A stretch of 64,000 nt of DNA, taken from NCBI GenBank assembly GCA_043797665.1, contig JAZDPL010000061.1, forward strand, positions 1,065-65,064. The letters run 5' to 3'. Position numbers and translations under genes: made by a program. Source of the DNA: Candidatus Omnitrophota bacterium (GTDB lineage Bacteria > Ratteibacteria > UBA8468 > MWAK01). The notes under the pieces were generated by a model, which was not told the origin of the DNA, ran no database searches, and saw only the letters and a list, made by a program, of their open reading frames with translations. Below are positions 30,486 to 63,936 of the stretch, piece by piece. Position 1 is the stretch's first letter; the number at the start of each line of letters is the position of its first letter.

Positions 30486-30573
30486 TTAATCCCTCAATCT
30501 GGTACCCCCTTATATTTTACTCCAACTTGCCCCACCCCGGCAAAAAATGGTATACTAATACAAACGAAATAAG

Positions 30574-30625: not shown

Positions 30626-30642
30626 TCAAATTATTTATTTCT

Positions 30643-35630: not shown

Positions 35631-35648
35631 AAGACGGGGTAAGGTCAA

Positions 35649-36974: not shown

Positions 36975-37073
36975 CCGGTCCCCGCTGACAAGCACAAAAA
37001 CCTTTCCCGGCAATAACCCCACCATGCTGTCGCAATTAGTTTGGACTGCAAACCTTGACCGGATTCTGCTGAC
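36975..37073 (+). repeat. type A element copy A2
   Basis: CCCGCTGACAAGCACAAAAACCTTTCCCGGCAATAACCCCACCATGCTGTCGCAATTAGTTT...CCTTGACCGGATTCTGCTGACC. Confidence 0.8.
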
Positions 37074-39766: not shown

Positions 39767-40663
39767 TTACTGTTCACCGCGGAGATTATCCAAATGTTTC
39801 CGGAGTTTTTCCTCAACTCGTGTTTTGCCACCGATAGAGTTATCGTAGAATATCGTTCTATTTGCAGCTATATCAAAGGGTAGGGATTCTCGCTTCTTGT
39901 CGCAAAGCATGACGGTTTTCTTCCTAATAGCATGCGAATAGCCTATTTCATAATAAACATTGGGATTATTCGGCGTCACATCTGCAATAACTAAGGACGC
40001 TTCACTTATCGATCGTGTTATGTCTTGGATTATCAGGTTGGAGGTGTACATGTCGTCAGCCCTCTTGACTGTGTATCCAAATGCTTCACATGTTGGCTTA
40101 ATGACTTCTCGGTATAGATCATCAAACTCGGGCGAAAATTGCATTATTACGAATGCCGTCTGAGATGTCTTGTCCATCTTGACGTTTCGAAAGTGTACAT
40201 ATGATTTACCTTGAGCAAACAGACCTATCTGCGAATCTACGATATTGAGTTCTGCCTGGCTAATCACTACGCCATGAATTGATAATTTTACGGCTGCACC
40301 AGTCACCTTAATAGTAACCGGAATCCAGTCGTCTTTCCTTAGGACGGTACCGAAACCCGCAAGGTTGATGGCTCTCCACTTCCCGCTTGCGAGGGATGCA
40401 ATTCCGTATGGTGTTTTCATTACATTCAAACCAACAAAAATCTGCTCGGCAGTCTGGTGATTTAGTACGACTTGGGCACAACAAGTCTCTTCTCCTATCT
40501 GGGCATCGAAGGAAATAGTCCCATTTTCGAAGTACTGGTTACATTTAACTACGCCGAAGGGTATTAGTCCAGGGCCGAGAGGTTCCGTAATCTCCGGCGT
40601 AAAAATCAAGTCGTTCTCTTGTATATCAAACTTCCCAATTATTGGGACCCATTGTATATTCAT
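39767..40663 (-). CDS. fusion protein: N-terminal LamG/DUF1080-like beta-sandwich plus C-terminal TIR-like/nucleoside 2-deoxyribosyltransferase-like Rossmannoid domain
   Basis: The C-terminal half reads AFVIMQFSPEFDDLY...VKRADD...SLVIADVTPNNPNVYYEIGYSHAIRKKTVML. This matches the strand/helix pattern with a conserved Glu (YEIGY) typical of NDT/TIR-like effector domains. The N-terminal half ends in ...GLFAQGKSYVHFRNVKM, like DUF1080 jelly-rolls. Confidence 0.55.
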   Translation of the reverse strand: MNIQWVPIIGKFDIQENDLIFTPEITEPLGPGLIPFGVVKCNQYFENGTISFDAQIGEETCCAQVVLNHQTAEQIFVGLNVMKTPYGIASLASGKWRAINLAGFGTVLRKDDWIPVTIKVTGAAVKLSIHGVVISQAELNIVDSQIGLFAQGKSYVHFRNVKMDKTSQTAFVIMQFSPEFDDLYREVIKPTCEAFGYTVKRADDMYTSNLIIQDITRSISEASLVIADVTPNNPNVYYEIGYSHAIRKKTVMLCDKKRESLPFDIAANRTIFYDNSIGGKTRVEEKLRKHLDNLRGEQ

Positions 40664-41654: not shown

Positions 41655-44600
41655 TTAGGCTACTGCCAATTGGCGAATCTCACTCAACAGCGAGACAAGT
41701 TGGTCAACCTGCGTTAGCGTGAACAGGCCTTCGGGACCCCGTGGGCTGATGTCAGTAAAAGGTGACTCGTAGAGCCGAGCTGTTTCCAGGACACCATGCT
41801 CCGTCAAGTGGTTGATGATGAGGTTGATAAACTCAATCTGGTTCGCGGTGGAGATCTTGCCTGATAAAAATTGATCGAAGGCGCGCTTGGCAGCTTCTCG
41901 ATCCAGTCCAACAAGGGAGCGGATAAAGAGACCAAGTCCTCTGCTTTCTTGCTTGGCGCGGTTCAGGTCCACCGATGTGCCGACGCCAGCCTGAAGCATG
42001 ATCCGCTCCAGTTCTTCGAGGTCTGTGGCCGTCAGCGGTTTATTCCATCTCAGTTTGTGGATAGTCAGATGATTCTCGTGTTCCCGTAAGAACTGACGCG
42101 CTTTAGCTCGAAACCGCTCGAAATCCGCGCCGGCGCCGAAACCGGACAACTCCACTGCGGCTTCTTTACCCATCTGATCCTCAAAGTCCGTATACACGTA
42201 CTTCCGCTTTGTCTTTTCGATGAGTTTCACCAATGTGCGCAGTCGCTTGCGGGCGGTTTCGAGAATGGGAATGGTTACGTCTTGCCAGTAGGCATCGGTC
42301 TGAATCTCCAGAATCAGTAACATTTGCTCGCGCACCATCGGGATGCTCGACTTTTCCTCCAACAGCCCCGCGATGTACCGCACTTGATCCCGTGACCTCT
42401 CAAAAAATGGATCGGTCCGCAGCAGCATCAGTTGCAGCCGCAGCATTAGCAGATCAAAGCGTTTCGCCTCCTCGTCCTCGTCCATCAGTTCACTTGGTAG
42501 GCCGGCAACGTTCCGCGCCAGTTCGTCGAAGTTTTCGCTTTTCAGCGCCGTCCACGCTTCAGGCTTCGCGTATTTCTCTACCAGTCGGCGCCGGGGGCGG
42601 ACGATGAAGTTGTCCACGTTCATCGCGGCTACCTGCCCCCGAAGCAAAGCAACCATTTCATGCCGAATTTCTTGCTCCGTGAATGTGTCGCCGTAGGATA
42701 TCATTTGTTCCTGCACGTGATCCGGGGCACCGGCAGCCGGCGCGCCCAGTTTCCGGTCCAGTTCGCCGATTAACTCCAGCCGCGTCGTGAAAAGCTTCTT
42801 CCCGAGCGATTCGCCCAAACTGCCTTCGGTCGTCTCCGGATTCTGGCTAAAGAACTCTAGGTTTTGACAGTAGTCGAACAGGTAGAAAAACTCCTTGGGC
42901 TTACCCGGCCCGAACAAATCCGGCCGCAACCGCGTACCACGTCCCACCATCTGCCAGAATTTCGTTTTCGAGCGCACCAGTTTGAAAAACACGAGGTTTA
43001 CCACCTCCGGGATATCGATGCCCGTGTCCAGCATATCCACGGAGATCGCGATGTGCGGCGCCTTGTCAGGTAGGGAGAAGTTGTCGATTAGGCTCTGCGC
43101 GTATTCAACCTTAAAATCGATCACCCGAGCGAACTCGCCCTTGTAGTGCGGGTAGTTGGCGTTGAAGCGCTCCGCGATAAACTCCGCATGGGCGTGGTTC
43201 TTGGCAAAAATGATGGTCTTTCCCAACCGGTCACCGTCGGACACCTTAAGACCTCGGGTCAACAGATGTTCGAGCACCTTATCTACGGTGTCCTTGTTGA
43301 AGAGCCACTTGTTGACCGCTTCGGCCTCCACGTGTTCGGGCACTTCGCCATCTTCACCCCACTCGAGCGCGTCCCACTGTTCCTTGTCTTCCTCGGATAG
43401 TTGGTCGTAGCGGATGCCCTCGCGCTGGAACTTGAGCGGCACGGAAACGGCCTTCGGGGGTACAAGGAACTTGTCATTTACCGCCTCTTCCAGTCCGTAA
43501 ACGTCTGTCGGCACACCCGTCTCCAGCTCGAACAAGCCATATGTGTTGTGGTCCACCTCGTCTTTCGGCGTCGCCGTCAGACCGACCAGCAGCGAGTCGA
43601 AGTAGTCGAAAATGGCGCGGTATTTCTGGTAGACGGAACGGTGCGCTTCGTCGATGATGACGAGGTCGAAGTGGCCCACGCCGAACTTCTTCTGCCCGTC
43701 GCGCGTCTCGTCGATGAGCCGCATCATCGTCGGGTAGGTAGAGACATACACCCGTCCCTCGGTGTTCTTCTCGGTCACCAGATTAACCGGGGACGACGCG
43801 GGCAGGTGCTTCTTGAAAACCCCCACCGTCTGGTTCACCAGCGCCACCCGGTCCGCAAGAAAGAGCACGCGCTTGACCCAGTTGCAGCGCATGAGCAGGT
43901 CGCACAGCGCGATTACGGTTCTGGTCTTACCCGCGCCGGTCGCCATAACCACCAGCGCTTTGCGGTCGTGGTCTTTTTCGAAGGCTTCGCCGATACGCCG
44001 GATCGCCCGCGTTTGGTAGTAGCGTTCGACGATGTCCGGATTGATCTCCGCGCCGGCCAGCGAGCGCCGCGTGCTGCGCCGCTGGGTCAACAGTTCCAGA
44101 TCCGCCTTTTTTAGGAAACCCTGCACCGGGCGCGGCGGATAGTTCGCGTCATCCCACAGCCAGTGCTCGTATCCGTTGGAGTAGAAAATTACAGGTCGCT
44201 GCCCGAACTGCTTCTCCAGACAATCCGCATAGAGTTTGGCCTGCTGCTGACCCACGCGCGCGTCACGTTTCGTGCGTTTGGCCTCTACTACGGCGAGCGG
44301 TTTGCCATCATCACCCCATAGCACGTAGTCCACAAAACCTCTGCCTTCGTTGTTGGGCATACCGCCGACCTCGAACTCGCGGTCCTGCGGTTTATCAAGC
44401 GCCCAGCCGGCTTCTTTAAGCAGCAGGTCGATGAAGTAATCGCGGGTCTCGACCTCTGAATAGTCGTGCGTATCGGGATAGACGGCGTTCGCGGCCTTGG
44501 TTTTAGCCACTTCTTCGCGCAGCCGCTTCAGTTCTTCATTGAGCGCGGCCTTATCCGAGAGCAGTATCGATAACCGGGTATCCTTCTCGGCGAGTTGCGC

Positions 44601-45074
44601 GGCCAGTGTCTGTAACTGCGTCAGCGTCTGGGGCGGGATGGGCGAAATTTTGGGCAGTAGGTTCGCATCAAAAACCAGTTCATCGGCGGTCTTGGCGTTC
44701 CGTGCATAGGTACGGGTTAGCCAGAAGCAGAAGTGGAACAGTTCGCGTACCGCCGTCAGGGCATCAAGCTGCTGCACCGGCCTGGTGCTGTGGACGGCCT
44801 GATTGCCTAATTCTTTAATAACCCGCGCCTTGTTGAAAACCGCCGGCCCGACCACCTGCCGGAAAGTGGGCTCGTGAATGAGCGCATTCAGGTGGTCCTG
44901 ATAGGGTAAAGTGAGCGCCCTGTCGTTCCGGTAGAGCCACGCCACAGCGAGTTCCAGCGCGCGCCGGGCGTAGAAACAGGCCGCCCGCGCATCGGGATAG
45001 GCCAGCGCTTCCGCTTTGGACGCGGCATCGTGCAATTCGGGCCATTCAACTTTGAGAAAGGTGAAGTTTGACAT
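41655..45074 (-). CDS. hsdR: type I restriction enzyme R subunit
   Basis: 1139 aa with SF2 helicase motifs MATGAGKTRT (Walker A) and VIIDEAHRS (DEAH). An N-terminal nuclease region and a long helical C-terminus are present. It belongs to an operon with hsdM and hsdS. Confidence 0.95.
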   Translation of the reverse strand: MSNFTFLKVEWPELHDAASKAEALAYPDARAACFYARRALELAVAWLYRNDRALTLPYQDHLNALIHEPTFRQVVGPAVFNKARVIKELGNQAVHSTRPVQQLDALTAVRELFHFCFWLTRTYARNAKTADELVFDANLLPKISPIPPQTLTQLQTLAAQLAEKDTRLSILLSDKAALNEELKRLREEVAKTKAANAVYPDTHDYSEVETRDYFIDLLLKEAGWALDKPQDREFEVGGMPNNEGRGFVDYVLWGDDGKPLAVVEAKRTKRDARVGQQQAKLYADCLEKQFGQRPVIFYSNGYEHWLWDDANYPPRPVQGFLKKADLELLTQRRSTRRSLAGAEINPDIVERYYQTRAIRRIGEAFEKDHDRKALVVMATGAGKTRTVIALCDLLMRCNWVKRVLFLADRVALVNQTVGVFKKHLPASSPVNLVTEKNTEGRVYVSTYPTMMRLIDETRDGQKKFGVGHFDLVIIDEAHRSVYQKYRAIFDYFDSLLVGLTATPKDEVDHNTYGLFELETGVPTDVYGLEEAVNDKFLVPPKAVSVPLKFQREGIRYDQLSEEDKEQWDALEWGEDGEVPEHVEAEAVNKWLFNKDTVDKVLEHLLTRGLKVSDGDRLGKTIIFAKNHAHAEFIAERFNANYPHYKGEFARVIDFKVEYAQSLIDNFSLPDKAPHIAISVDMLDTGIDIPEVVNLVFFKLVRSKTKFWQMVGRGTRLRPDLFGPGKPKEFFYLFDYCQNLEFFSQNPETTEGSLGESLGKKLFTTRLELIGELDRKLGAPAAGAPDHVQEQMISYGDTFTEQEIRHEMVALLRGQVAAMNVDNFIVRPRRRLVEKYAKPEAWTALKSENFDELARNVAGLPSELMDEDEEAKRFDLLMLRLQLMLLRTDPFFERSRDQVRYIAGLLEEKSSIPMVREQMLLILEIQTDAYWQDVTIPILETARKRLRTLVKLIEKTKRKYVYTDFEDQMGKEAAVELSGFGAGADFERFRAKARQFLREHENHLTIHKLRWNKPLTATDLEELERIMLQAGVGTSVDLNRAKQESRGLGLFIRSLVGLDREAAKRAFDQFLSGKISTANQIEFINLIINHLTEHGVLETARLYESPFTDISPRGPEGLFTLTQVDQLVSLLSEIRQLAVA

Positions 45075-45115
45075 TATGCGCCTCTCAGAACCAACTCCCT
45101 GAATATAGTCCGCCT

Positions 45116-46150
45116 CTATTTCAATTCTTCTTGTATCGGCATTTTCAATGCGTTTGCGTCAGGAAGTTTTCCCGCCAAATATCTGGGAAGTTTCTTTGTA
45201 AGATAGTACTCAGCAACACCCACGGGCTTTTTGACACTGCGTAAGGCATACTCAACCACGATGTTATCCTTATCCGCACACAGAATAATACCTATTGACG
45301 GATTCTCATCTTTCAACTTCACTTGTTCATCCAACAGATGCAGGTAAAAATCCATTTTACCGGCATATTCGGGTTCGAACTTACCGGTCTTAAGCTCAAC
45401 TGCCACGAGACATTTCAATTTGCGGTTGAAAAACAGAAGATCAACGAAATATTCGTTATTTCCCAGCGTGAGCCGGTATTGATTACCGAGAAATGAAAAT
45501 CCGTAACCAAGCTCCAGAATAAACTGTTTGATTTTCTCCACAAGCCTTTTTTCAAGATCCCGCTCCAAGACCGGTTTGGTAATGCCGAGAAAATCAAGGT
45601 TGTAAACGCTTTTTATGGCTTCATCCGCCTGTTCGGCGAGATGGACAGGCAAGGCTTTAGGAAAATTGTGGGTTTTTTGTCTCTGGCTTAATGCGTATGC
45701 GTTGGCTTTTATCTGATTGAGAAGCACATTCCTTGACCAGCCAAAATCACGGGAAGATTTAATATAATATTCCCGTTCGTCATCAGCGGAAATCTTCTCC
45801 ATAATCAGCAGATTATGCCCCCATGGAATTTCTGCAACAAGCTGTTGCAGAAATGGCTTGTCTTTGTATTCCTCATATAATCTGCGCATGTTCCACACAT
45901 TTCTCTCCGAAAACCCTTGCACCTCTGGAAAGGACTTTTGTAAGTCGCGGGCAAGAACCTCAACAACATTGTCACCCCACTTGTATTTTTGCTGACGCTC
46001 AACGATGTTTTTACCGATATCCCAGTATAGATTTATAAGCTCTTTATTGACCGATCTTATCGCCTGAATCCGCGCTGTAAGAATGCGAGATTTAATTTCA
46101 TTTAAGAATTCAATGTATTCTTTACCCGCTATGTTTTGTCGAGTAGACAT
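45116..46150 (-). CDS. DUF1016/YhcG-like PDDEXK nuclease-fold protein
   Basis: 344 aa. The N-terminus Y..FLNEIKSRILTARIQAIRSVNKELINLYWDIGK and the C-terminal core FVDLLFFNRKLKCLVAVELKTGKF (D...ExK) are as I recall for YhcG-family proteins. Confidence 0.75.
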   Translation of the reverse strand: MSTRQNIAGKEYIEFLNEIKSRILTARIQAIRSVNKELINLYWDIGKNIVERQQKYKWGDNVVEVLARDLQKSFPEVQGFSERNVWNMRRLYEEYKDKPFLQQLVAEIPWGHNLLIMEKISADDEREYYIKSSRDFGWSRNVLLNQIKANAYALSQRQKTHNFPKALPVHLAEQADEAIKSVYNLDFLGITKPVLERDLEKRLVEKIKQFILELGYGFSFLGNQYRLTLGNNEYFVDLLFFNRKLKCLVAVELKTGKFEPEYAGKMDFYLHLLDEQVKLKDENPSIGIILCADKDNIVVEYALRSVKKPVGVAEYYLTKKLPRYLAGKLPDANALKMPIQEELK

Positions 46151-46170
46151 CTTTTAAATCCTCAAAGGAG

Positions 46171-47895
46171 TCATGCCCCCGCCGCTTTCCGGATGAATTC
46201 ATTCATGCACGTGACCAGCGCCTCTCGCCTGAAGCGCAGAAACTCCCGGTAATTTTCCATCTTCCACAACTCCGGCGTACATGGCACCCGTTGGGCGTCC
46301 AGCGCCGCCTGTCCCCGTGCCTCGATGATGCCTGGTAGATACGCGCCCGGTTCCTTGTTGCTCAACTGGCGGTTGGTCTGGCCGGTGATAAAAGCCATAT
46401 TTGCGATTTCATTGATCTCGCCTGTCTCGAAATCGCGCTTCTTGAGTAAAGACTTAGGAAAAATATGGTGCCACTGGATGAAATGCATCCGGCCTTGATT
46501 GGTCAGAGAAAGACCCAGCCCACTGAACCAGTCCTTCGCGCCGCCGTCTTTAAGGGCGAGGTAGGCCAACGAAAACAAGGGGCTGTTTGCGCCGCGCCCG
46601 GCAAGATCCGTCGTCTCGATATGCAAGCGTCCGAACTGTTGTTTCACCGGTTCAAGCAGCGTCGCGATGTCGCCGGAACGGAAGATTATGGCCAAATCCT
46701 CATTGAGCAGTGATTCGGTGGAACCGCGCGAGTAACGACCACGCGCGTTGGCAATTAGCAACCAGTACAAGAGTGCGTTCTGCTCCGCCTGCGTAAGTTT
46801 GTTGTTTTTGGCGCGACTGACGGCGGCCAGCGCAAGGATGAACATCGGGGATGAAAGCAGCGATTCATCTTCGATACCGGCGTTCGTCCGCAGAAAGTTG
46901 ATTGCATAGCGCAGTCCTTCCTGGGCCTCATCCCAGCCCGTTTTTAGCCGTGCCACGGACGTGCCGCCTACAATTCGAAAAAGACATTGCTTGGTTGCAA
47001 ACACTACGATGGACCGCACCAGCAGACCGAGGTCGAGCGTGAACCACCTTTGCTCACACTCCTCCTGAAACTCTTCGAGATGTTTGAGCAGGTTCGGCCA
47101 GCGCGACGTCATCTGGGCCAGCGCGAGGTCCGACGAACGCAACTTGGCGCCCAACGAGTTCACGCGGACGAAGATCTCCGTCACCTCCTCGTATTTCATC
47201 GCCCGTTCCAGCACGTGGACCACATACGGATAGCTCTTAATCTGCCGCAACTTGGTTAGCCGGTCGGAGTATTTCTGGTAGCGCGGATCTTTGAATGACT
47301 CAATACCCGCTTTTTCCAAGATAGCGGTATCACTGGACTTAAATACTTCACTCACCGACACCCAGTTGGGCAGTGCTTGCAGGTTCCGGCTGGCCACCAC
47401 GAACGTGCGCCGGTTCAGCCGCTCCACCAATCCCTCGTCGGAGTCGCCATTATCGTCGGCTTCGTCCACCATCTCGTCGTCTGGAGTCAGTAGCGATTCC
47501 TCATCGCTAACGACCTCGACGACCTCGGTAGGCGGGCCCTCCGGATGTTCCAGGTTGAATAGAATTTCAATCGGCCGCTTGCGACCGCGTACTGTTACCG
47601 GTTCGCCATTGAGCACAGCCGTCAATGAAGTCAGGCGTTGCTGTCCGTCGAGCAGCAGTTTGCGTCCGGCGAATGCCGTCGTGTCCTGCGGAATGGCGAA
47701 ATCGTGGGTCGGAATAGGCTCATCCGTTTCCCACATCAGGATCGAGCCACTGGGATAACCGCGATACAAAGAATCAAATAGGTCGCGTACACGCGTCGCC
47801 CGCCACACGTAATGGCGCTGGATTTCGGGCAACTGCAACTCCCCCCGTTTATACATATCAACCAGAGTGCTGATTGGAATGTTCTGTTGTTGCAT
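46171..47895 (-). CDS. DUF262 (ParB-like) plus DUF1524/HNH-like protein, GmrSD-type modification-dependent nuclease family
   Basis: 574 aa with N-terminal LPEIQRHYVWR and LLLDGQQRLTSL (DUF262 hallmarks). The C-terminal HHIFPKSLL...NEIANMAFITGQTNRQLSN is a His-Me finger-like motif. Confidence 0.8.
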   Translation of the reverse strand: MQQQNIPISTLVDMYKRGELQLPEIQRHYVWRATRVRDLFDSLYRGYPSGSILMWETDEPIPTHDFAIPQDTTAFAGRKLLLDGQQRLTSLTAVLNGEPVTVRGRKRPIEILFNLEHPEGPPTEVVEVVSDEESLLTPDDEMVDEADDNGDSDEGLVERLNRRTFVVASRNLQALPNWVSVSEVFKSSDTAILEKAGIESFKDPRYQKYSDRLTKLRQIKSYPYVVHVLERAMKYEEVTEIFVRVNSLGAKLRSSDLALAQMTSRWPNLLKHLEEFQEECEQRWFTLDLGLLVRSIVVFATKQCLFRIVGGTSVARLKTGWDEAQEGLRYAINFLRTNAGIEDESLLSSPMFILALAAVSRAKNNKLTQAEQNALLYWLLIANARGRYSRGSTESLLNEDLAIIFRSGDIATLLEPVKQQFGRLHIETTDLAGRGANSPLFSLAYLALKDGGAKDWFSGLGLSLTNQGRMHFIQWHHIFPKSLLKKRDFETGEINEIANMAFITGQTNRQLSNKEPGAYLPGIIEARGQAALDAQRVPCTPELWKMENYREFLRFRREALVTCMNEFIRKAAGA

Positions 47896-47897
47896 AG

Positions 47898-49142
47898 TTA
47901 TAGGTCTCCTTTAAACGCGCGGTGCTGGAGGGAAGCGAAGAGTGAATCCAACTTCGCCAACGACACCCGCTGCTTCGCTTTCAATCGTTCCACCGTTTTC
48001 ACCTGCCCGGCAAACTCACGTTGTAGTGGAAACGGAGGGACCGAAACCTGTAGCTTGCTCAAGTTGCCTCTGGAGATCCTCTCACGAGTCGTACCGGTAG
48101 CGTGTCGGGCAACCTGCTTTCGAAACGAGTCGCTGTTGATGCATGAAACGAGCCAATAAATGTCGGGGCCGCCTTTCGACGGACGAATGATGCACACATC
48201 AACGACTGTCACGCACTCCTGATGTTCACCGGGGAAGATACACGCTCGTCCCAGTGGGTCAGGCATTCGGGCAACCAAGACATCGCCCGTGCGAAGGAAC
48301 GTGCAACGAAGATCTGCCGCCTTTTCGGGAGTTAAAAAACGAGCGGATTTGTTGAGGTAGATGCCATCACCAACATCAGCGAGCTGTATGAGCCTTACGG
48401 CTCCGTCTGGGTTTTGGTCCTTCGATTCAACCCAATCGCCGTCAACGAACACTTCTGCATTTTCTAGAACTTTAGCGAATGGCTTTGCCTCCCAATGCTT
48501 CGGATTCGTCACCGGATCACCAAACATCTCAAGAAAAATTGCTTGGGTGAGGATATCAAGTTGGGCGAGGGCATGGCGACGCTTGGCTCGCAACGCTTCC
48601 GCCCGGTCCAGTACCTCTGCAATCCGCCGCTGCTCCGCCAAGGGGGGGAGGGGAATACGCAGTTGCTTCAATAAACCGCTATTGAAGCCCGCCATAATGG
48701 CGCCGTGGCACTTAGCTTTTATCTGTGCGACAACGAGCGGGCAGAAATTGAGCATCCACGATACGTAAGGTGGCCACGCTGCATGTGTATCGAGGCTAAT
48801 CTTGATTAGATGACTTGAGATAATGGATTTCTCCAAGTCGTCTGGGACGACACACGTCCGTCCTACTGTTCCCATGTTCGTGACAAGGAGGTCCCCAGGT
48901 TTGACTGTGTATTGGCTGAGCTCGCGGAATTTCGGTTCAGGGATGTACTTCCGTTTTTCAGACACCAATTCGTTAGGAAAAACATCTTCAATCCCAAGTA
49001 CTCTGACACCAACTTCAGAATACTCGTGCTTCTTCAGCGCGCTGCCGAAAGGGCCAATCCGGATGGCGCTTTTCTCTGGAGCCGCGATTTGTTCCATCGT
49101 TGGGAAGCGCCAACCAACCGGCGGTTCGTAGGGGAGTCTCAC
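47898..49142 (-). CDS. hsdS: type I restriction enzyme specificity subunit
   Basis: 414 aa with two target-recognition halves, each followed by the conserved helix (LPPLAEQRRIAEVLDRAEALRAKRR and VPPFPLQREFAGQVKTVERLKAKQR). It overlaps hsdM by 4 nt. Confidence 0.9.
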   Translation of the reverse strand: MRLPYEPPVGWRFPTMEQIAAPEKSAIRIGPFGSALKKHEYSEVGVRVLGIEDVFPNELVSEKRKYIPEPKFRELSQYTVKPGDLLVTNMGTVGRTCVVPDDLEKSIISSHLIKISLDTHAAWPPYVSWMLNFCPLVVAQIKAKCHGAIMAGFNSGLLKQLRIPLPPLAEQRRIAEVLDRAEALRAKRRHALAQLDILTQAIFLEMFGDPVTNPKHWEAKPFAKVLENAEVFVDGDWVESKDQNPDGAVRLIQLADVGDGIYLNKSARFLTPEKAADLRCTFLRTGDVLVARMPDPLGRACIFPGEHQECVTVVDVCIIRPSKGGPDIYWLVSCINSDSFRKQVARHATGTTRERISRGNLSKLQVSVPPFPLQREFAGQVKTVERLKAKQRVSLAKLDSLFASLQHRAFKGDL

Positions 49143-50677
49143 TTCAGCATCCCCCCCAACTCCTTCATCCCCTGCTGAATCTCCGCCTCCAGATTGGAAA
49201 GGTCGGCGAGGATATCCTGCGGTGGGCGGTGCTGCACTTCTTCATGCACCACTTCCTTGTACCGGTTAAGGGAGAGGTCGTAGCCCTGTGCCATGAGGTC
49301 GGCCTTGGGCACACAGAAACTCTGCGCGGTGCGTGGGCGTTTACGTTCTGTTTTGTCCCGCTGTTTCCAGCGCGCCAGCACGTCAGGTAGGTTATTCTTA
49401 GCGAGTTCCTCGGCTGTCAACGCATGCGCGGGAACGGGACCGAGTTTTTCCTCGGGTAGAAACGGTTGGCGCTTGTCGTCCAAAGACCAGCCGTCGGCGT
49501 CGCAGTCGTAGAACCACACCTGGTCGGTCCCGCCGGAGTTGGTCTTGGTGAAAAGTAGAATGGCGGTGGACACGCCAGCGTAGGGCTTGAACACGCCGCC
49601 GGGCAACGAAATCACGGCGTCGAGCTTCTGCTCCTCGATGAGCATCTGGCGCAGGGTCTTGTGCGCGTTACTGGAGCCGAAGAGCACACCATCGGGCACA
49701 ATTACCGCGGCGCGGCCACCGGGCTTTAAGAGCCGCAGGAAGAGCGCGAGGAAGAGCAGTTCGGTCTTCTTAGTCTTGACGATCTGCTGGAGGTCCTTGG
49801 CGGTGTTCTCGTAGTCGAGTGACCCGGCGAAGGGCGGATTGGCTAAAACCAGGGTGTAACGTTCCTCTTCGCCGGCATGGTCTTCTGCGAGCGAGTCGCG
49901 GTAGCGGATGTCGGGGTTCTCCACACCGTGCAGCAACATGTTCATACTACCGATGCGCAACATGGTGTTGTCGAAATCGAAACCGTGGAAGGCATGCTGG
50001 TGGAAGTGCGTCTTCTGCTTCGCGTCGCGCAGGATCTCCGGGTGGCGCTCGCGTAGGTATTCACCCGCCGCGACGAGGAAACCGGCGGTGCCGCAAGCAG
50101 GGTCGCAGATTACGTCGCGTGGACCGGGGGCCGTCATCTCCACCATCAACCGGATGATGTGGCGCGGGGTACGGAACTGGCCGTTGGTGCCGGCGGTGGC
50201 GATTTTGCCAAGCATGTATTCGTAGAGGTCTCCCTTGGTGTCGCGGTCCTCCATCGGCACGCGGTCGATCAGGTCCACCACCTTGACCAGTAGTGCGGGT
50301 GTGGGTATGGTAAAACGAGCGTCCTTCATGTAATGTGCGTAGGTGGAACCGTTACCGACCTGAGTGCGGAGAAAGGGGAAGACGTGTTCGCTAACTATGG
50401 TAAACATCTCGTGCGCCTCGAAGTGTTTGAAGCGCGACCAGCGCAGATCGTCGTAGGGGCGGCCCTTGGGGTCTGTGCTCTTGGGGAAGACGCGCCGCTC
50501 CATCGGCGTTTTGAGCCGGGAGGACTTGTTCTCTTCCAGGGTGTGTAGGTCATCGAGACGACGCAGGAAGAGCAAGTAGGTGATTTGCTCGATGACTTCG
50601 AGCGGATTTGAGATGCCACCGGACCAAAAGGCGTCCCAGATGTGGTCGATTTGGTTGCGCAGTTCACCTGTAATCAC
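49139..50677 (-). CDS. hsdM: type I restriction enzyme N6-adenine DNA methyltransferase subunit
   Basis: 512 aa with the SAM-binding motif ICDPACGTAGFL and the catalytic LANPPFAG (NPPF). Confidence 0.95.
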   Translation of the reverse strand: MITGELRNQIDHIWDAFWSGGISNPLEVIEQITYLLFLRRLDDLHTLEENKSSRLKTPMERRVFPKSTDPKGRPYDDLRWSRFKHFEAHEMFTIVSEHVFPFLRTQVGNGSTYAHYMKDARFTIPTPALLVKVVDLIDRVPMEDRDTKGDLYEYMLGKIATAGTNGQFRTPRHIIRLMVEMTAPGPRDVICDPACGTAGFLVAAGEYLRERHPEILRDAKQKTHFHQHAFHGFDFDNTMLRIGSMNMLLHGVENPDIRYRDSLAEDHAGEEERYTLVLANPPFAGSLDYENTAKDLQQIVKTKKTELLFLALFLRLLKPGGRAAVIVPDGVLFGSSNAHKTLRQMLIEEQKLDAVISLPGGVFKPYAGVSTAILLFTKTNSGGTDQVWFYDCDADGWSLDDKRQPFLPEEKLGPVPAHALTAEELAKNNLPDVLARWKQRDKTERKRPRTAQSFCVPKADLMAQGYDLSLNRYKEVVHEEVQHRPPQDILADLSNLEAEIQQGMKELGGMLK

Positions 50678-50772
50678 GGTTGTTCAGTTGTTAAAAAATA
50701 ATACCTTCGGCAAAGAAAAAAGACAACCCATTTTTCTATTCAGGACACACAGTAAATGTTAGCATCCTGCCA

Positions 50773-51150
50773 GAATCCAGTCAAGGGATTATTAGTATGG
50801 AAAATATGATATAATACAGGGCAGCGGGGCCCGTGGCTCAGCGGTAGAGCAGCGGACTCATAATCCGTTCAGTTCAATTTTAACCAGAGGTTTTCTCCCG
50901 GGCTAATCTCCAGCAAACCATTACCTATCAACGGTCTTGTCATTGCGAGCCCGAAGGGCGTGACAATCTCATCCTTCCTCATTTTCAGCGAATTCTGTCA
51001 CACACCTGTCACACTTTTTCACGCCTCCATAATCAGCAGATTATGCCCCCATGGAATTTCTGCAACAAGCTGTTGCAGAAGAAGTTTGACATTATGCGTC
51101 TCTGTTTTTTGCTGAAGTTCGTTTAGTATCAAGGGATTTGAAAGAAATCA
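50773..51150 (+). repeat. T block copy 3 (promoter region, tRNA-like head 50827-50869, tail interrupted by a 79-nt patch at 51025-51103)
   Basis: It has the same 43-mer and the same upstream 52 nt as copy 2. Relative to copies 1 and 2, its tail carries an insertion made of two pieces of the adjacent R-M locus. Confidence 0.85.
50807..50815 (+). promoter_or_regulatory. extended -10 box TGATATAAT, 11 nt upstream of the tRNA-like head (copy 3), divergent from hsdM
   Basis: An exact TGnTATAAT match at the same spacing as in copy 2. Confidence 0.55.
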
Positions 51151-51167
51151 GCATAACGGGGCGACAT

Positions 51168-51365
51168 CCAAACCTGCCAGTTAGATAATTTCTTACCTAT
51201 TTTTCCCTCCCGGGAGTACTCCCGGATCCGGTAGAATGCCCCCATGGTAGAAGTCATATAGGAATGGTGGGACGGACTTTTTGGGGAAAGTGATACATAG
51301 GATACCACCCGAGGGGAGATTTACGCCAGGCGTGGACGTACGCAAAGCAGGAACGCATAGATTTT
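51168..51365 (+). repeat. type C element copy 3
   Basis: It aligns with 34744-34940 along its whole length. It contains the perfect 16-nt palindrome CCGGGAGTACTCCCGG. Confidence 0.85.
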
Positions 51366-51384
51366 CTCCGGGGGTTGTCTCACC

Positions 51385-51518
51385 TCGGCGGGTGGTTGTC
51401 TATCCGGCCTTCCTCTGACAACCCAAAACCTTTCCCAGCAAAACTTTCCCCACCCTCCAGTCGCAATTAATTACTAACAACGAATTTGACTACCCAAAGA
51501 GAATGAAGTATCCTTTAA
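51385..51518 (+). repeat. type A element copy A4 with promoter module ending 5 nt before an ATG
   Basis: CCTCTGACAACCCAAAACCTTTCCCAGC...CCCCACCCTCCAGTCGCAATTAATT...TTGACT(51486-51491)-17 nt-TATCCT(51509-51514)-TTAAT-ATG(51520). Confidence 0.8.
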
Positions 51519-52192: not shown

Positions 52193-52470
52193 CCCCAGAA
52201 TCCCTTCCCCGCGCTCAGGTCCTACCCACCATACCTACTCTCCCCTGAGTAACTGTTGCATGCAACGGTTACTACTGACAATGTGGTGCCCTACCTCACC
52301 ACCCAGTTTCAATTCCTTCCTTTCTAATTTGCGATTTGCGAAGATATCACCCCAGAATTGATATTCTTCCCTCACCCAATCTCCAAAAATCCGTAAGAAG
52401 CGATTTTGGAGGTTGATTTAGCAGTTCTTCCCAACCACCATCCAAACGCAATTAATTCCGTTGTCGTTTA
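52193..52470 (+). repeat. type B copy B2 (hairpin 52248-52273) fused to a short type A core (A5, CGCAATTAATT at 52447-52457)
   Basis: CCCCAGAATCCCTTCCCCGCGCTCAGGTCCTACCCACCATACCTAC...GAGTAACTGTTGCATGCAACGGTTACT...TTTCTAATTTGCGATTTGCGAAGATATCACCCCAGAATTG... Confidence 0.8.
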
Positions 52471-57189: not shown

Positions 57190-57266
57190 CGTTCCGCTCA
57201 AGGTAACTTACCCCACCTCCCAGCCGCAATTTAGTTTCAATATCCCTTGACCGGATTCTGCTGGAC
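57190..57266 (+). repeat. type A element copy A8 (degenerate core CAGCCGCAATTTAGT)
   Basis: ...TACCCCACCTCCCAGCCGCAATTTAGTTTC...CCCTTGACCGGATTCTGCTGGAC, as at the A2/B1 junction. Confidence 0.7.
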
Positions 57267-57530
57267 CCCAGAATCCCTTCCCCGCGCTCAGGTTCCCCCA
57301 CCATACCGACTCTCCCCTGAGTTGCTGTTGAGGTCAACAGCAACTTCCGACACCGGGATGCCCTACCCCACCCCCCAGTCTCAATTTCTTCCTTTCTAAT
57401 TTGCGATTGGCGGCGATATCTCCCCAGAACTGATGTTCTCCCTCACCTAACTCCCCAGAAACCCGTAGGAAGCGATTTTGAAAAGCAAATTAAGGTATAA
57501 GGTTTCGTTATTGATTGCCTGCAATCTCTT
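57267..57530 (+). repeat. type B copy B3 (hairpin 57320-57345)
   Basis: About 90 percent alike with B1. The hairpin reads AGTTGCTGTTGA-GG-TCAACAGCAACT. Confidence 0.85.
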
Positions 57531-58942: not shown

Positions 58943-59482
58943 ATGGGTGATTTTTTGAATTTCCTTACTCGAATCAAAAACCCCCTAATCTTAGTGCTAA
59001 CTGTTTTCTTCATTATGCTCTTTATCTTGCTTCATCTTGCTTTGCGAAAAAATAGGCGAAACAATATTTTCTTCACAAACAAGTTCGATGAGTTGTATCT
59101 GAAAATCAAAGAGGATATCAATTTCGCCGTAACCCCCAAATTCGTTAGTTTGTCCTCAGATATGAATGATCTTGTGGAGTTAACCGTTGAAGTTTGGAGA
59201 ATCGAGCAACGAATAATAAAATCTTTACCGGCCTTATCGGAAAACCAAAGGAATGGTTTAGAAAATTCTATCCGAAGATTGAGAAGATATCTTGAAAAAC
59301 ACGACATCATGATTGTAGATCATACGAACCAGAAGTTTAATGATGGGCTTAATCTTGATGTCTTGTCCGTTGAGAAGGATTCATCGTTGACAGAACCAAT
59401 TATCAAGGAAACAATCGAACCGACAATCATGTACAAAGGCCTGGTCGTCAGGAAGGCCAAAATTATTTTATTGAGCAAATAG
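58943..59482 (+). CDS. membrane-anchored GrpE-like nucleotide-exchange-factor homolog
   Basis: N-terminal TM (LILVLTVFFIMLFILLHLAL). The C-terminal LEKHDIMIVDHTNQKFNDGLNLDVLSVEKDSSLTEPIIKETIEPTIMYKGLVVRKAKIIL aligns position by position with my recollection of the E. coli GrpE beta-domain (LEKFGVEVI...G..DPN.H.A....E......V......GY.L.GR.IR.A.V.V). Confidence 0.5.
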   Translation: MGDFLNFLTRIKNPLILVLTVFFIMLFILLHLALRKNRRNNIFFTNKFDELYLKIKEDINFAVTPKFVSLSSDMNDLVELTVEVWRIEQRIIKSLPALSENQRNGLENSIRRLRRYLEKHDIMIVDHTNQKFNDGLNLDVLSVEKDSSLTEPIIKETIEPTIMYKGLVVRKAKIILLSK

Positions 59483-59500
59483 AGAATAACGTAGAATACC

Positions 59501-62014
59501 ATGGCTAATGAAAACATCCAAATTGGTATTGATTTGGGAACAACAAATTCAGAAGTTGTTATTAATAGCAATGGCGTTATCGAGGTCGTTAAAAATGCAT
59601 TTGGGGATGAGTATACACCTTCTGTTTTCGGTTTTGATAAGTCAAAGAACGGAACGGTTGGCAAAAGAGCACATGAGCGGCTTTATAAAAATACATCGGA
59701 AGAAGAACTTAGGAATAATAAGGCGGAAGTCAAGAGGCTAATGGGGACATCCGAAACCGTCTACTTTGAAAGAACTGGCCTTAAAATGAATGCTGAAGAG
59801 ATTTCTGCTGAAATTCTCAAGAGCTTAAAAGAAGATGTCTTGAGAAAATATCCGGACTTTGATACTTTGGCCGCAGTCATCACTGTACCTGCCTATTTCT
59901 CTGTCTTGCAGTCTGAGGCCACCAAGAGGGCTGGTAATCTCGCTGGGTTCAAATACGTGGTTCTGCTGCAGGAGCCCATTGCGGCGGCAATCTCATATGG
60001 ATTCATGAACGCGAAAAACGAAAACTGGCTCATTTACGATCTTGGCGGTGGAACATTCGATGTCGCTTTAATCTCCTCGAGGGATGGAGTTTTGTCAGTA
60101 TTGGGTCATAATGGTGACAACTTCTTGGGAGGTAAGGATTTTGATTGGTTAATTGTTGATCGTGTGATTGTTCCGAAAATTCTTGAAAAATATTCAATGA
60201 GCAACTTCGATAGAGGCAATGTCAAATATAGAAGTGTTTTTGCGAAATTGAAATACATTGCCGAAACATTAAAAATTGATCTGGCGCAATATGGTAAAAC
60301 CTCTATCGAAATAGATGGTATAGGCAAAGATGGTTTAGACAAAGAGATATGTTTTTCCATTACTTTTTTGAGAAAAGAATTTGAGGAGTTAATCAAGCCA
60401 ATGGTCGACCGGACGATCGAACTAGCAAAAAAAACCTTGAAAGAAGCCGGGATTAAAAATACTTCAGTCGAGAGAACTATTCTTGTTGGTGGCCCCACCC
60501 AGATTCCTTACATCAGAGAAAGGCTTAACAATGATCTCGAAATAACAGTTGATTCCTCTGTTGATCCACTTACTGTTGTGGCTAAAGGAGCCGGCGTGTT
60601 TGCTATCAGTCAAAAGATTCCAGGGGAATTTTTTGGGGGTGAACCCCGGAAAATAAAAAAAGGTACTCAAACTTTAAAATTGAATTATGAGACTCTAACT
60701 TCTGAACCCGAACCGACGATTAGCGGCATCGTAGATGACTTTAAGAATTCGGAAGATGAATATTACATACAAATTCAATCTGAAAGCGGATTTTACAGTG
60801 GTTCAAAGACTAAATTAAAAAATGGCACATTTTTTGACACTGTTGTGCTTGAACCGAATAAAACAAACTTGTTCTGGATATATCTTTTCGACCAGCAAGG
60901 TAATTCTATCCCAATTGATCCTGACTCGTTTACAATCACTCATGGTTTGTCTGTTTCTGGCGCTCCGATATCCCACTCTATAGGAATTGCCGTTGTTAAA
61001 AAAGATATCAGGGGAGGATTCGTTCCCACCGAAGTATTTGAGGAATTTTTCGAAAAAGGCTCCATTCTACCACTAAAAAAGACGGAGCCATTCAAAACAG
61101 TTAGGAGATTGAAGAGAAATGAGAATGACAACCCTCTTTGGATCAAGATTGGCGAGGGCGAATCTGATATTCCAGATAGAAATGTCTATGTTTGTACACT
61201 GGGAATAAAAGGAAGTGATTTGCCATATGATTTACCAGAAGGCACTGATATCGAGATAACTGTTGAGGTCAACGAGTCTCGCGAGCTTTTTGTAACAGCT
61301 TATATCCCCCTAATCGACCTTCGCCTCAATGCTCGTTCTACATTCAAAGATGAAGTAGTCAACGTCAAAGATATGGAATCCGAACTTGCTATAGAAATGG
61401 ATAGAGCTAGAGTTATTGCTAAAAATTGTTCCACGGAAAAACGCAACAAAATTGATAATATACTTCAATCCGTGCGCACCAGTTTAAAAAATGCTCACCT
61501 TGACGAAGATGAAAAGCGAAAGGCTAACAAGCAATTGAAGGATCTTAAGACTTATGTTGACCAGTTGCAAAAGGAAACTGAAATGCCACAATTGATTGAA
61601 ATATTTAACGCTGGCATTGAACAAGTACAAAAAATAATCGATGAGTTTGCCGATCAGAAAGAGAAAAACACCAACAATGAACAACTGAGAAAGATAAAGG
61701 CCGAGGGAGAAAAAGCAATATGTGAAAATGATAAACCTTTGCTGAGTAGAATTAATGAACAAATTGAAGAATTTCGAATGAAGACCCTGTTATCCAATCC
61801 AGAGATGTGGGTTTATTACTTCCAGCAAATTACTCAAGGCGATAAGAAATTTATAAATGAAAAAGAAGCGAATTATTACATTGAAAAAGGGAAAAGGTCA
61901 ATTGAGTCTGGTGATGTTGAAGATCTAAAACATTGTGTCCGCAATTTGATTTCATTACTCCCAGAGGAGGATCAGGAAATAATGAAGAGAAATCTTGCAG
62001 GCATTACTCATTAA
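59501..62014 (+). CDS. atypical 837-aa Hsp70-family ATPase
   Basis: Actin-fold NBD motifs IGIDLGTTNSEV, DLGGGTFDVALI, ILVGGPTQIPYIRERL and DPLTVVAKGAGVFA. About 130 aa of extra sequence follows, then SBD-beta-like strands (APISHSIGIAV, IKIGEGES, IEITVEVNESRELFVTAY) and a long helical tail. Confidence 0.85.
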   Translation: MANENIQIGIDLGTTNSEVVINSNGVIEVVKNAFGDEYTPSVFGFDKSKNGTVGKRAHERLYKNTSEEELRNNKAEVKRLMGTSETVYFERTGLKMNAEEISAEILKSLKEDVLRKYPDFDTLAAVITVPAYFSVLQSEATKRAGNLAGFKYVVLLQEPIAAAISYGFMNAKNENWLIYDLGGGTFDVALISSRDGVLSVLGHNGDNFLGGKDFDWLIVDRVIVPKILEKYSMSNFDRGNVKYRSVFAKLKYIAETLKIDLAQYGKTSIEIDGIGKDGLDKEICFSITFLRKEFEELIKPMVDRTIELAKKTLKEAGIKNTSVERTILVGGPTQIPYIRERLNNDLEITVDSSVDPLTVVAKGAGVFAISQKIPGEFFGGEPRKIKKGTQTLKLNYETLTSEPEPTISGIVDDFKNSEDEYYIQIQSESGFYSGSKTKLKNGTFFDTVVLEPNKTNLFWIYLFDQQGNSIPIDPDSFTITHGLSVSGAPISHSIGIAVVKKDIRGGFVPTEVFEEFFEKGSILPLKKTEPFKTVRRLKRNENDNPLWIKIGEGESDIPDRNVYVCTLGIKGSDLPYDLPEGTDIEITVEVNESRELFVTAYIPLIDLRLNARSTFKDEVVNVKDMESELAIEMDRARVIAKNCSTEKRNKIDNILQSVRTSLKNAHLDEDEKRKANKQLKDLKTYVDQLQKETEMPQLIEIFNAGIEQVQKIIDEFADQKEKNTNNEQLRKIKAEGEKAICENDKPLLSRINEQIEEFRMKTLLSNPEMWVYYFQQITQGDKKFINEKEANYYIEKGKRSIESGDVEDLKHCVRNLISLLPEEDQEIMKRNLAGITH

Positions 62015-62028
62015 TAAAGGAAGTGAAA

Positions 62029-63936
62029 ATGGCTGTATTTGAAGAAAAAAAGGTTGTTGTTTGTTCCCGTGGCCATCTCTTTTTTACGGTAAATAAGACA
62101 TCAGTATCTGCTATTATTTGTCCTGAATGTGGAGAGAAAATTATCGATGCCCTCCCCACTCAACCGAGAAAGACAATTTTGGCGCCTGCAGCGGAAAAAC
62201 ATGAGGTTCAAAGTGCGGAAGCCCCAGCCATTCAAGACAAACTGGATCAGGAGATGGATTTAGCACCAAAAATTACCACGCCCGTTATTTCGAATCAAAA
62301 ATCAATGGAGCGGGGTAATACGTCTAATACATTCAAAAATAACGCTTATTGCATTCTTGGGTTGGAAACTTCGGCGAACCAAAAAGATATCCTTAAGCGA
62401 TCAAGGGAAATTATCAATCACCTAAAAATTGGCGAACATCCGGAATACGACTTAGATGTCAATCTATTCAAAGACTTCAGGACGGAAGAATCGGTAAAAG
62501 AAGCCGTGCAAAGATTGCAGACCCCAAAGAAAAAAATCAAAGAATATTTTTTCTGGTTCCAAATAGCGGATAGCATCGATCAACAAGCACTGGGATTACT
62601 TAGAAGCAAAGATTACTTAGGTTCCTCGGTCACCTGGCAAAATGCATCTGACACCAATAATGCAAGGTTTTACTCCTACAAAAGGAATCTTGCTATTTTG
62701 TATTGCTTGTTACTTTCGATAGGAAATAACGAGCATTATCTTCAAGATTCACTATTAATATGGAAGGAACTTCTAGGTTCCGAGGATTTTTGGACTTTCT
62801 TTTCTAAAGAATATAAATTACAGGATGAACAAACAACCAGCCAAGAAATAATCACCGATTTTGAAAATCAGGCTGTCGGTTATTTAGCTGATATATATAC
62901 TGAACTGCATCAAATTCACAATAACGCCGAATATATAAATGAGTTTCAAAAAATCTTTTCGACAAAAGGTGAAAAGATAGAAAGGAATGTATTGGAACCA
63001 GCTTACCAAGCGATTAATGATGCTACCAAAAAGTTAGAAGAGATGAAGGTGGGCGAAGACGGTGTACTTACTAAGCAAGAGACGGAAGAAATAAAAAACC
63101 TCTATGGATCAATTCAGCTTGAACTAAATAAACTAATCGACCTAGGTTTTTATGATGACAGTCAAACGAAAATAATGCGGGATAAGGTGGCGAACGCATT
63201 GAAAACCATCGTCTTGGACCTACACAACAATCTAAGCGAAACAGAAAAGGCTCTTTCCCTGTTAAATATTGCCTTGAAAATAGTCGGCACATCCAGTTTA
63301 GAAGCAACAATAAAACATGAAATTCAAACTCTCGAGAAGATTAAAAAGAATACCGACTTAATTAACCCCGTCAGTGACTTGATTGCTCAAGAAAAATATG
63401 AAGAAGCATTGCAGCGCCTCTATTTTGACCAAGCAAAATACCAAGAGGACCCAGAACTGCAAAAATTGTATGATCGGCAAAAGAAATTTTTTGTTTCCAA
63501 CATTGCATCTAGGAATAATAGTTTAGCATGGGGCCATTTAGAACTCTCGCGGATGGATTTGGCAAAGCTCCTTTCGCGGCAGGCTGGAGATTTAATCTAC
63601 GACAACATTATTCTATATAACTTCAATAGAAAGGCTATTGACGAGATGCTAGCGGAAATCCATTCAAATCTCACAAGGTTCAAATCTTGCCACATTAAAC
63701 GATGCTATGAATATCGAAATTCCTTCGCGAAATTGGCCAATGAGCAATTCAAAGGACAACCTGAGGAAATGGCATTGGTGATTTTGGTTGATTCATACTT
63801 GTTTCCCCACCTTATTAACCTACACAAAAGGAAAAAAGAGGCAGATACGATGTACAATATTGGCAGCTATACGTGGTGGTTCGGTGTGGGTTTAATTTTT
63901 TATATAGCCGGCTGGATTCATGAAAATAGGGGTTGA
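62029..63936 (+). CDS. 635-aa zinc-ribbon / J-like domain / helical / C-terminal TM protein
   Basis: Start at MAVFEEKK, 14 nt after the Hsp70 stop. CSRGH...CPECG is a zinc ribbon. NAYCILGLETSANQKDILKRSREIINHLKIGEHPEYD resembles J-domain helices II-III with HPE in place of HPD. The last 25 aa are hydrophobic (WWFGVGLIFYIAGWI). Confidence 0.55.
   Translation: MAVFEEKKVVVCSRGHLFFTVNKTSVSAIICPECGEKIIDALPTQPRKTILAPAAEKHEVQSAEAPAIQDKLDQEMDLAPKITTPVISNQKSMERGNTSNTFKNNAYCILGLETSANQKDILKRSREIINHLKIGEHPEYDLDVNLFKDFRTEESVKEAVQRLQTPKKKIKEYFFWFQIADSIDQQALGLLRSKDYLGSSVTWQNASDTNNARFYSYKRNLAILYCLLLSIGNNEHYLQDSLLIWKELLGSEDFWTFFSKEYKLQDEQTTSQEIITDFENQAVGYLADIYTELHQIHNNAEYINEFQKIFSTKGEKIERNVLEPAYQAINDATKKLEEMKVGEDGVLTKQETEEIKNLYGSIQLELNKLIDLGFYDDSQTKIMRDKVANALKTIVLDLHNNLSETEKALSLLNIALKIVGTSSLEATIKHEIQTLEKIKKNTDLINPVSDLIAQEKYEEALQRLYFDQAKYQEDPELQKLYDRQKKFFVSNIASRNNSLAWGHLELSRMDLAKLLSRQAGDLIYDNIILYNFNRKAIDEMLAEIHSNLTRFKSCHIKRCYEYRNSFAKLANEQFKGQPEEMALVILVDSYLFPHLINLHKRKKEADTMYNIGSYTWWFGVGLIFYIAGWIHENRG

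Follow-up and report, generated by a model that had tools for sequence, protein, structure and literature searches.

A 64,000-nt stretch of DNA from a Candidatus Omnitrophota bacterium (hereafter the window; positions 1,065 to 65,064 of contig JAZDPL010000061.1, GenBank assembly GCA_043797665.1) carries a type I restriction-modification (R-M) operon and three similar blocks, termed T1, T2 and T3, the last of which bears a short patch made of two pieces of that operon. How did the patch arise, and does it have a function? The original prediction favoured a trans-antisense regulator of the restriction gene hsdR and named a scar of templated repair as the alternative. It is the alternative that turned out to be the better-supported reading, owing to exact copies, intact donors, a reversed order of the pieces and microhomology at the joins. 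We consider the patch, with a probability of about 0.7, to be a mutational scar left by a multi-step, microhomology-guided templated insertion at a displaced tRNA-Met fragment or island junction. The antisense complementarity of an RNA transcribed from T3 is accordingly taken as an accidental by-product and not as a selected function. Both the tRNA-linked island array and the templated insertion are of known kinds; the locus is a new instance of them and not a new system.

In order to define the patch and its sources, the region 50700-51500 was compared with the whole window by blastn. Positions 51025-51080 were found to be identical to 45797-45852 on the same strand (56/56, E = 1.4e-26), and positions 51081-51103 matched 45063-45085, also on the same strand, at 22 of 23 nucleotides (E = 1.6e-4). 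The two identities claimed earlier were thereby confirmed, and the coordinates of the open reading frames (ORFs) bear out the assignment of the first donor to the DUF1016 gene and of the second to the hsdR start, with its first codons and ribosome-binding site (RBS). An exact-repeat scan again displayed the 56-nt run, together with an 18-nt run (45063-45080 = 51081-51098); between 31 and 64 kb these two runs were the only exact gene-to-intergenic duplicates of at least 16 nt.

The extent of the inserted sequence was determined by scoring every possible deletion in T3 for the alignment that it restored with T1 and T2, neither of which contains the patch. The top-scoring deletion, 51024-51098 (75 nt), raised the score from 135 to 221, in agreement with the earlier view that the third copy carries an insertion relative to the other two. 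Once these 75 nt are taken out, T3 is collinear with T1 and T2, and therefore the recipient site lost nothing. The ancestral T3 sequence is reconstructed as ...TTTTTCACG|TCTCTGTTTTTTGC..., the corresponding place in T2 reading ...TTTTTCACGTCCCTGTTTTCG... The pentamer TCTCT at the end of the second match (51099-51103), which includes the single mismatch at 51099, consists of native T-block bases and was not copied; T2 has TCCCT here. Thus, the number of bases really copied from hsdR is 18, not 23.

Both donor ORFs are intact, and the first donor encodes the peptide FLQQLVAEIPWGHNLLIME, which falls within the match to Pfam family DUF1016_N. It follows that copying went from the operon to the junction, since neither donor ORF is damaged and one of the two segments codes for part of a conserved domain. 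The donors are separated by 712 nt, and their copies stand in direct orientation with the order reversed relative to the genome. Because of this reversal, the arrangement is not produced by any single deletion or simple recombination. One could imagine instead a second copy of the R-M operon beside T3, present as a tandem duplicate or a circular intermediate and later eroded to two fragments. Such a history would be consistent with the origin of both fragments from one operon and with their direct orientation, although two tandem copies or a circle would be needed for their order to be collinear. It would nevertheless call for at least three independent deletions, which would have removed the ~8 kb between the pieces and the sequence on both sides while leaving the T-block flanks perfectly collinear with T1 and T2. 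In addition, 100% identity to the resident copy speaks for recent copying and not for an old, decayed paralogue, and we regard such a remnant as extremely unlikely.

The region can be parsed without any mismatch into CACG (T block), CCTC (45081-45084), CATAATC...GCAGAA (45800-45852), GAAG...GCG (45063-45080) and TCTCT (T block). The overlaps at the four junctions are CG, CTC, none and CG, respectively, so that microhomology of 2–3 nt is present at three of the four. Six of seven positions agree between CGTCTCT, where the insertion lies, and CGCCTCT, which is the complement of the hsdR Shine-Dalgarno (SD) sequence. In the 9-kb operon the plus strand has just four instances of CG[CT]CTCT, and the hsdR SD complement is one of them. 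The chance of hitting the hsdR start is ~0.3% by position alone and rises to about 1 in 4 given the microhomology. Thus, the CGTCTCT/CGCCTCT microhomology and the rarity of the motif in the operon explain why the hsdR start looks targeted.

Taken together, the patch displays what is expected of a templated insertion: exact donors that remain intact, absence from T1 and T2, no loss at the recipient site and microhomology at the switch points. We propose that, in the left, non-coding arm of the third junction, DNA synthesis came to a halt at ...CACG|TCTCT..., either at a stalled fork or in the course of break repair. The growing strand would then have used two short segments of the R-M operon, 5–6 kb away, as templates before returning to its original one. 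The switches would have been guided by the CGTCTCT/CGCCTCT homeology at the hsdR SD complement and by CTC at the DUF1016 site, and the outcome would have been 75 extra bases with the donors unchanged. Serial template switching mediated by microhomology has been described as fork stalling and template switching or microhomology-mediated break-induced replication (FoSTeS/MMBIR; PMC5120786, PMC7954356). As in the filler insertions attributed to these processes, the patch combines several short, out-of-order segments from nearby intact donors, with 2–3 nt of microhomology or homeology at the joins and nothing lost by the recipient. Events of the FoSTeS/MMBIR type are known mostly from eukaryotes and experimental systems, whereas the present one is deduced from a single sequence of an uncultivated bacterium.

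A related route would lead through RNA: pieces of the operon mRNA might have been reverse-transcribed and used as filler in break repair. Both pieces could come from one polycistronic transcript, being of the same strand, and microhomology-mediated end joining dependent on bacterial group II intron-like reverse transcriptases has been described (bioRxiv 10.1101/2022.03.14.484287). In a single cDNA, however, 45063-45085 would precede 45797-45852, the opposite of what is seen, so that an extra switch between molecules would be required, and no reverse transcriptase gene was recognized among the scanned ORFs of the window. An RNA template is therefore highly improbable. We also considered that the patch might be an artefact, either of chimeric reads (e.g. 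from multiple-displacement amplification) or of mis-joins in a metagenome assembly graph. The window comes from a 95-kb contig of metagenomic type, and amplification polymerases do switch templates. Nevertheless, the 0–3 nt shared at the junctions are far too few for a mis-join in a de Bruijn graph, the patch sits cleanly in otherwise collinear sequence, and a chimera would need a majority of the reads to enter the consensus. An artefact is thus very unlikely.

The coordinates of the patch, its donors, the T blocks and the operon are compiled in Table 1.

Table 1. Features of the patch, the T blocks and the R-M operon (positions in the window).
Feature	Position	Strand	Remarks
T3-specific insertion	51024-51098	+	1 nt (C), 56 nt of DUF1016 and 18 nt of the hsdR start
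DUF1016 copy	51025-51080	+	= 45797-45852, 56/56; plus-strand reading is antisense to the mRNA
hsdR copy	51081-51098	+	= 45063-45080, 18/18; complement of hsdR -6 to +12 (start, codons 2-4)
Native TCTCT	51099-51103	+	lengthens the complementarity across the hsdR SD AGAGG, with one G.U pair; microhomology site of the template switch
Donor 1	45797-45852	-	codons 100-118 of the intact DUF1016/YhcG (PDC-S02) gene
Donor 2	45063-45085	-	hsdR translation initiation region: AGAGG (SD), 6-nt spacer, ATG TCA AAC TTC
T block 1	31844-32036	+	5' half of the chromosomal tRNA-Met, chromosomal DNA upstream, foreign left end; no patch
T block 2	35648-35897	+	promoter, tRNA half and left end as in T3; no patch
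T block 3 up to the patch	50774-51023	+	promoter region, tRNA-Met 5' half, left end of the putative next island
Extended -10 TGATATAAT of T3	50807-50815	+	same in T2; 11 nt before the tRNA 5' end
tRNA-Met(CAT) 5' half of T3	50827-50869	+	same in T2; matches the tRNA-Met of relatives up to ...AATCCGTT
Foreign or degenerate sequence	50870-50906	+	in place of the variable loop, T arm and 3' acceptor strand
Type I R-M operon	41655-50677	-	five intact ORFs; GC 0.52-0.57 against ~0.40 in the flanks
hsdM	49139-50677	-	
hsdS	47898-49142	-	
GmrSD/DUF262-like gene	46171-47895	-	
DUF1016/YhcG gene	45116-46150	-	PADLOC PDC-S02
hsdR	41655-45074	-	

Several small features are created by the patch, with no sign that any is in use. 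These are a -10-like CATAAT placed 16 nt after CTGTCA (9/12 consensus match; 51006-51033, plus strand), a plus-strand ORF of 27 codons (51043-51126) and a minus-strand ORF of 19 codons (51092-51033) that opens with the copied hsdR ATG and is preceded by an SD-like AGAGA, not AGAGG. In addition, the 12-mer ATGCCCCCATGG, part of both the patch and its DUF1016 donor, recurs 130 nt downstream (51236-51247) in a copy of F3, one of the non-coding repeat families of the window (see below). The other F3 copy has ATAAACTCATGG at this place (34810-34825), a clustered difference of 5 nt, and the number of such recurrences expected by chance is ~0.003–0.005. It could represent a second micro-templated change or a homeology that helped the switch.

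What, then, is the site that received the patch? The three T blocks are 94–95% identical and directly oriented. Each contains 43 nt that correspond to the 5' acceptor strand, D arm and anticodon arm of tRNA-Met(CAT), after which the T arm is absent. ARAGORN reports no tRNA in the window, and Rfam finds the T blocks to be marginal tRNA matches (29–30 bits against a threshold of 29; 29.9 for T3); with permissive thresholds, this marginal match was the sole one over 50700-51500. The closest named relative of the MgtC protein encoded upstream of T1 belongs to Candidatus Omnitrophota and led to a contig (L004; GCA_043826355.1) whose genes are ordered as in the window: giant protein, TonB, ExbD, ExbB, glycosyltransferase, ..., DUF3108, MgtC, HU. 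An intact tRNA-Met gene follows MgtC-HU both there and in a second contig, L005. A third contig, L006, stems from a closer relative (MgtC 92% identical) and contains the DNA found upstream of T1 followed by the same tRNA 5' half. Its tRNA runs on as ...CCGTTGGTCG, i.e. ...AATCCGTT-GGTCG, which adds 5 nt of genuine tRNA sequence (as in L004) before the contig ends. All three copies in the window continue after ...AATCCGTT with -CAG(G/T)TCAATTTTAA.

The sequences that surround the tRNA halves differ in origin. Ahead of the tRNA half, T2 and T3 are identical over a 52-nt promoter segment that includes the extended -10 TGATATAAT (TGnTATAAT), a motif read directly from the sequence; the equivalent site before the intact tRNA-Met of L004 is TGTTATAAT. 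T1 has chromosomal DNA upstream, and its promoter has decayed: the TATAAT of L006 is replaced by TACGAC at the -10, and the TTGACA -35 is interrupted by an insertion of 42 nt (31766-31845 compared with 1230-1275 of L006). The idea that this insertion is a second templated patch was rejected, as no donor was found within the window. On the other side, the left end that follows the tRNA half of T3 holds CTGTCACAC twice (50995-51014), and the left end of the T blocks has a TCAAGGGATT motif that is found upstream of the core too. Both the repeats and the motif may be arm-type binding sites.

The base composition shifts at the T blocks, with GC values of 0.48–0.54 for the core, 0.38–0.41 for the flanking foreign DNA and 0.52–0.57 for the R-M operon. 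The segments between the T blocks are small (3.8 and 15 kb), and their cargo comprises a TIR effector, the type I R-M genes, the GmrSD-like gene, the DUF1016/PDC-S02 gene and two paralogues of 553 and 552 amino acids (aa). The T blocks therefore look like displaced 5' fragments of a tRNA-Met gene, situated where at least three tandem defence islands adjoin. In this reading, T2 and T3 would be attP-like junctions, in each of which an island's right end (promoter and tRNA 5' half) meets the left end of the island that follows. Such an array requires that a restored tRNA-Met and any integrase lie beyond the window, which is part of a contig of 95,199 nt and leaves ~31 kb of it outside.

Other identities of the T blocks were tried and discarded. 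A small RNA (sRNA) gene was ruled out, as the block is a tRNA-Met 5' half fused to foreign DNA and the tRNA is intact at the syntenic place in L004. A group I intron in tRNA-Met did not fit either, the window containing no tRNA 3' half and the conserved block being too short. Ends of a type V-K CRISPR-associated transposon or of a Tn7-like element were set aside, as no transposase or Cas genes were seen. Searches for related junctions met with little success: an exact pattern spanning the breakpoint between tRNA and foreign DNA (CATAATCCGTTNNNNTCAATTTTAA) gave only chance matches in Pedobacter-like DNA among genome and metagenome contigs, a search that diverged T blocks would escape. T-block patterns had no match in viral contigs, and comparison of the T3 region with plasmids returned a single chance match of 41 nt.

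Arrays of this kind have precedents. An island that integrates into a tRNA gene (tDNA) restores the gene and displaces a fragment of it. Among the 3919 islands of the Islander data set, 159 have a fragment of the 5' type, located upstream of the restored tDNA, and tandem arrays are recorded too (PMC4383910). Tycheposons grow by repeated integration, with partial tRNA copies between the elements and integrase-less remnants (bioRxiv 10.1101/2020.12.28.424599). The locus studied here resembles such arrays in that directly repeated end fragments of one tRNA gene separate foreign, defence-rich blocks, a related genome has this gene intact at the syntenic position, and the junctions resemble attP sites in which a tRNA fragment is joined to conserved arms with repeated motifs. 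Unlike in most Islander islands, the repeated piece is a 5' half with an island-borne promoter, which places it with the minority of 159 in 3919. An integrase and a restored tRNA-Met are missing from the window, and the blocks are small. For annotation, this re-reading means that the T blocks would be recorded as displaced tRNA-Met 5' halves and not as sRNA genes.

The promoter carried by T3 brings back the question of a regulatory RNA. The operon lies on the minus strand and the T3 promoter on the plus strand, as the original prediction had it, with TGATATAAT located 209 nt upstream of the patch. A consensus promoter scan did not call TGATATAAT, because it lacks a -35. A simple scan of 50820-51380 found no intrinsic terminator on either strand, which means that, although termination before 51025 had been considered as a possible objection, none is predicted up to 51380. 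Since the promoter faces the patch with no terminator predicted between them, any T3 transcript reaching it would be complementary both to the hsdR SD and start codon and to 56 nt of the mRNA of DUF1016, and, if made and stable, it could pair with both. The 23-nt duplex over the hsdR SD, the ATG and three further codons has a predicted energy of -36.5 kcal/mol (23 contiguous pairs, one of them G.U), and the 56-nt duplex with the DUF1016 mRNA one of -108.3 kcal/mol (56 perfect pairs). Only these segment-level energies were used, as duplex folding of long RNAs gives an inflated background (-45 to -51 kcal/mol for the T2 control).

Accordingly, it is conceivable that the same copying accident was kept by selection because the T3 RNA blocks translation of hsdR and damps the restriction subunit, while its pairing with the DUF1016 mRNA might yield a substrate for RNase III directly before hsdR. 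In addition to the rightly oriented extended -10 some 200 nt upstream, the terminator-free stretch and the strong duplexes described above, attenuation could pay, the R-M operon being foreign as judged from its GC content and from HsdM matches across phyla. There is also a precedent in the antisense control of the EcoRI R-M system by Rna0 (PMC3141266); antisense control, including that of type I toxin-antitoxin systems, has been reviewed (PMC3874152). As in these cases, the putative RNA is complementary to the mRNA of a toxic component, here to its SD and start codon. The known antisense RNAs are, however, cis-encoded and overlapping, have promoters of their own and are conserved with their systems, whereas here the RNA would be encoded in trans, 6 kb away, from the promoter of a broken tRNA gene, for a type I system and at one junction only.

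Further observations speak against such a regulator. The patch is a lone occurrence, absent from T1 and T2 and carried by no relatives; the choice of target is accounted for by microhomology; and five of the 23 pairing bases are T-block sequence that existed beforehand. The T3 RNA has no sRNA-like 3' end, the U-run at 51104-51110 not being preceded by a stable hairpin in the predicted fold, and no exposure is predicted for its pairing regions (mean probability of being unpaired 0.36–0.37, compared with 0.41 for the whole RNA). The promoter is that of a broken tRNA gene, with no dedicated sRNA gene behind it. Moreover, type I restriction is classically controlled after translation, through ClpXP-dependent restriction alleviation. 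Three loci with HsdM homologues (L007-L009), a very small sample, have unrelated contexts and contain no T block, tRNA fragment or operon-derived patch. The similar patches that the original prediction proposed to look for beside homologous R-M islands were thus not present at L007 and L008, and no relatives of the T blocks were found. We therefore consider an exapted regulator unlikely. The narrower version, a trans-antisense repressor caught at birth, in which the accident would have placed the complement of the hsdR RBS and start, together with 56 nt of DUF1016, behind an orphan tRNA promoter and thereby begun to dampen HsdR, is if anything slightly less probable still. Thus, the geometry put forward in the original prediction stands, while regulation of hsdR in trans gains no support, given that the patch is a single, non-conserved event and that capture of the start is explained by homeology.

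Some points weigh against our preferred interpretation, a templated-insertion scar within an island array. The mechanism is read solely from the anatomy of the junctions, no intermediate of repair or replication being visible, and one of these junctions, GCAGAA|GAAGTT, has no usable microhomology. A single sequence cannot tell neutrality from recent selection; indeed, selection is unreadable here because the perfect identity of the copies says that the event is recent. Furthermore, an antisense geometry over an SD and start codon, lying downstream of a promoter that looks strong, has the look of a functional repressor. Finally, the 64-kb window contains neither a tRNA-Met 3' half nor an intact tRNA-Met, and no integrase or recombinase domain was recognized among the scanned ORFs (at least 80–120 aa, 30.5–64 kb), which leaves the array model incomplete.

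If the patch is indeed a scar, it would be a clean natural case of a multi-segment, microhomology-guided templated insertion in an uncultivated Omnitrophota-like bacterium. Accidents of this sort can place antisense sequence behind an orphan promoter and so provide raw material for new regulators. Should the antisense reading prove true instead, this would be the first type I restriction subunit with control at the RNA level, and the locus would document the birth of a regulator.

The R-M operon itself has two extra genes, the GmrSD/DUF262-like and the DUF1016/YhcG genes, between hsdS and hsdR; relatives hold other inserts at this position (SLFN/AlbA_2, Fic). The best 120 matches to HsdM are 81–89% identical, and the named ones among them come from Acidobacteriota, Actinomycetota, Chloroflexota, Planctomycetota and Geobacter. 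The occurrence of these matches in several phyla therefore points to wide horizontal spread of the operon.

The paralogues of ~553 aa (32209-33870, minus strand; 37861-39519, plus strand) are 27% identical to each other and match no Pfam or PADLOC model. They have Cys and His motifs that are conserved and point to a papain-like peptidase, and 161 homologues were found in metagenomes, often beside helix-turn-helix regulators. Exact look-ups of four proteins of the window (DUF1016, ORF181, HU and the Hsp70-like protein) returned no record. Viral-contig searches with ORF181 and ORF553 gave no match, and the contexts of three ORF553 homologues (L011-L013) showed no T blocks, tRNA fragments or patches. 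A 298-aa protein (39767-40663, minus strand) has a C-terminal domain resembling TIR and nucleoside 2-deoxyribosyltransferase domains (PADLOC TIR effector, E = 2.9e-14) and is likely a defence effector. Farther downstream, in the region 58943-63936, a weakly GrpE-like ORF, an atypical Hsp70-like protein (837 aa) and a 667-aa protein that matches no Pfam family follow one another in this order; the region may be a non-canonical chaperone-like or defence module.

The non-coding DNA of the window contains a hairpin and several repeat families. The DUF1016 copy within the patch (51025-51080) holds a 9-bp hairpin, UUCUGCAAC/GUUGCAGAA, in the RNA fold. Between 34731 and 57525, five families of non-coding repeats (~50–290 nt, 71–90% identical), none with an Rfam match at the gathering threshold, lie between the ORFs in a cassette-like layout. 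F2 is present at 37053-37338, 52193-52408 and 57245-57525, while F3, F1 and F4 form leaders before the ORFs at 34951, 51520 and 54182; an F1-like sequence is located directly downstream of the intact tRNA-Met in L004. Outside the islands, the core contains intergenic repeats of 50–70 nt (761-817, 4351-4419, 5688-5753, 14865-14934, 25980-26169 and 30421-30627). These occur in both orientations, with some copies 100% identical, and resemble repetitive extragenic palindromic (REP) elements or terminators.

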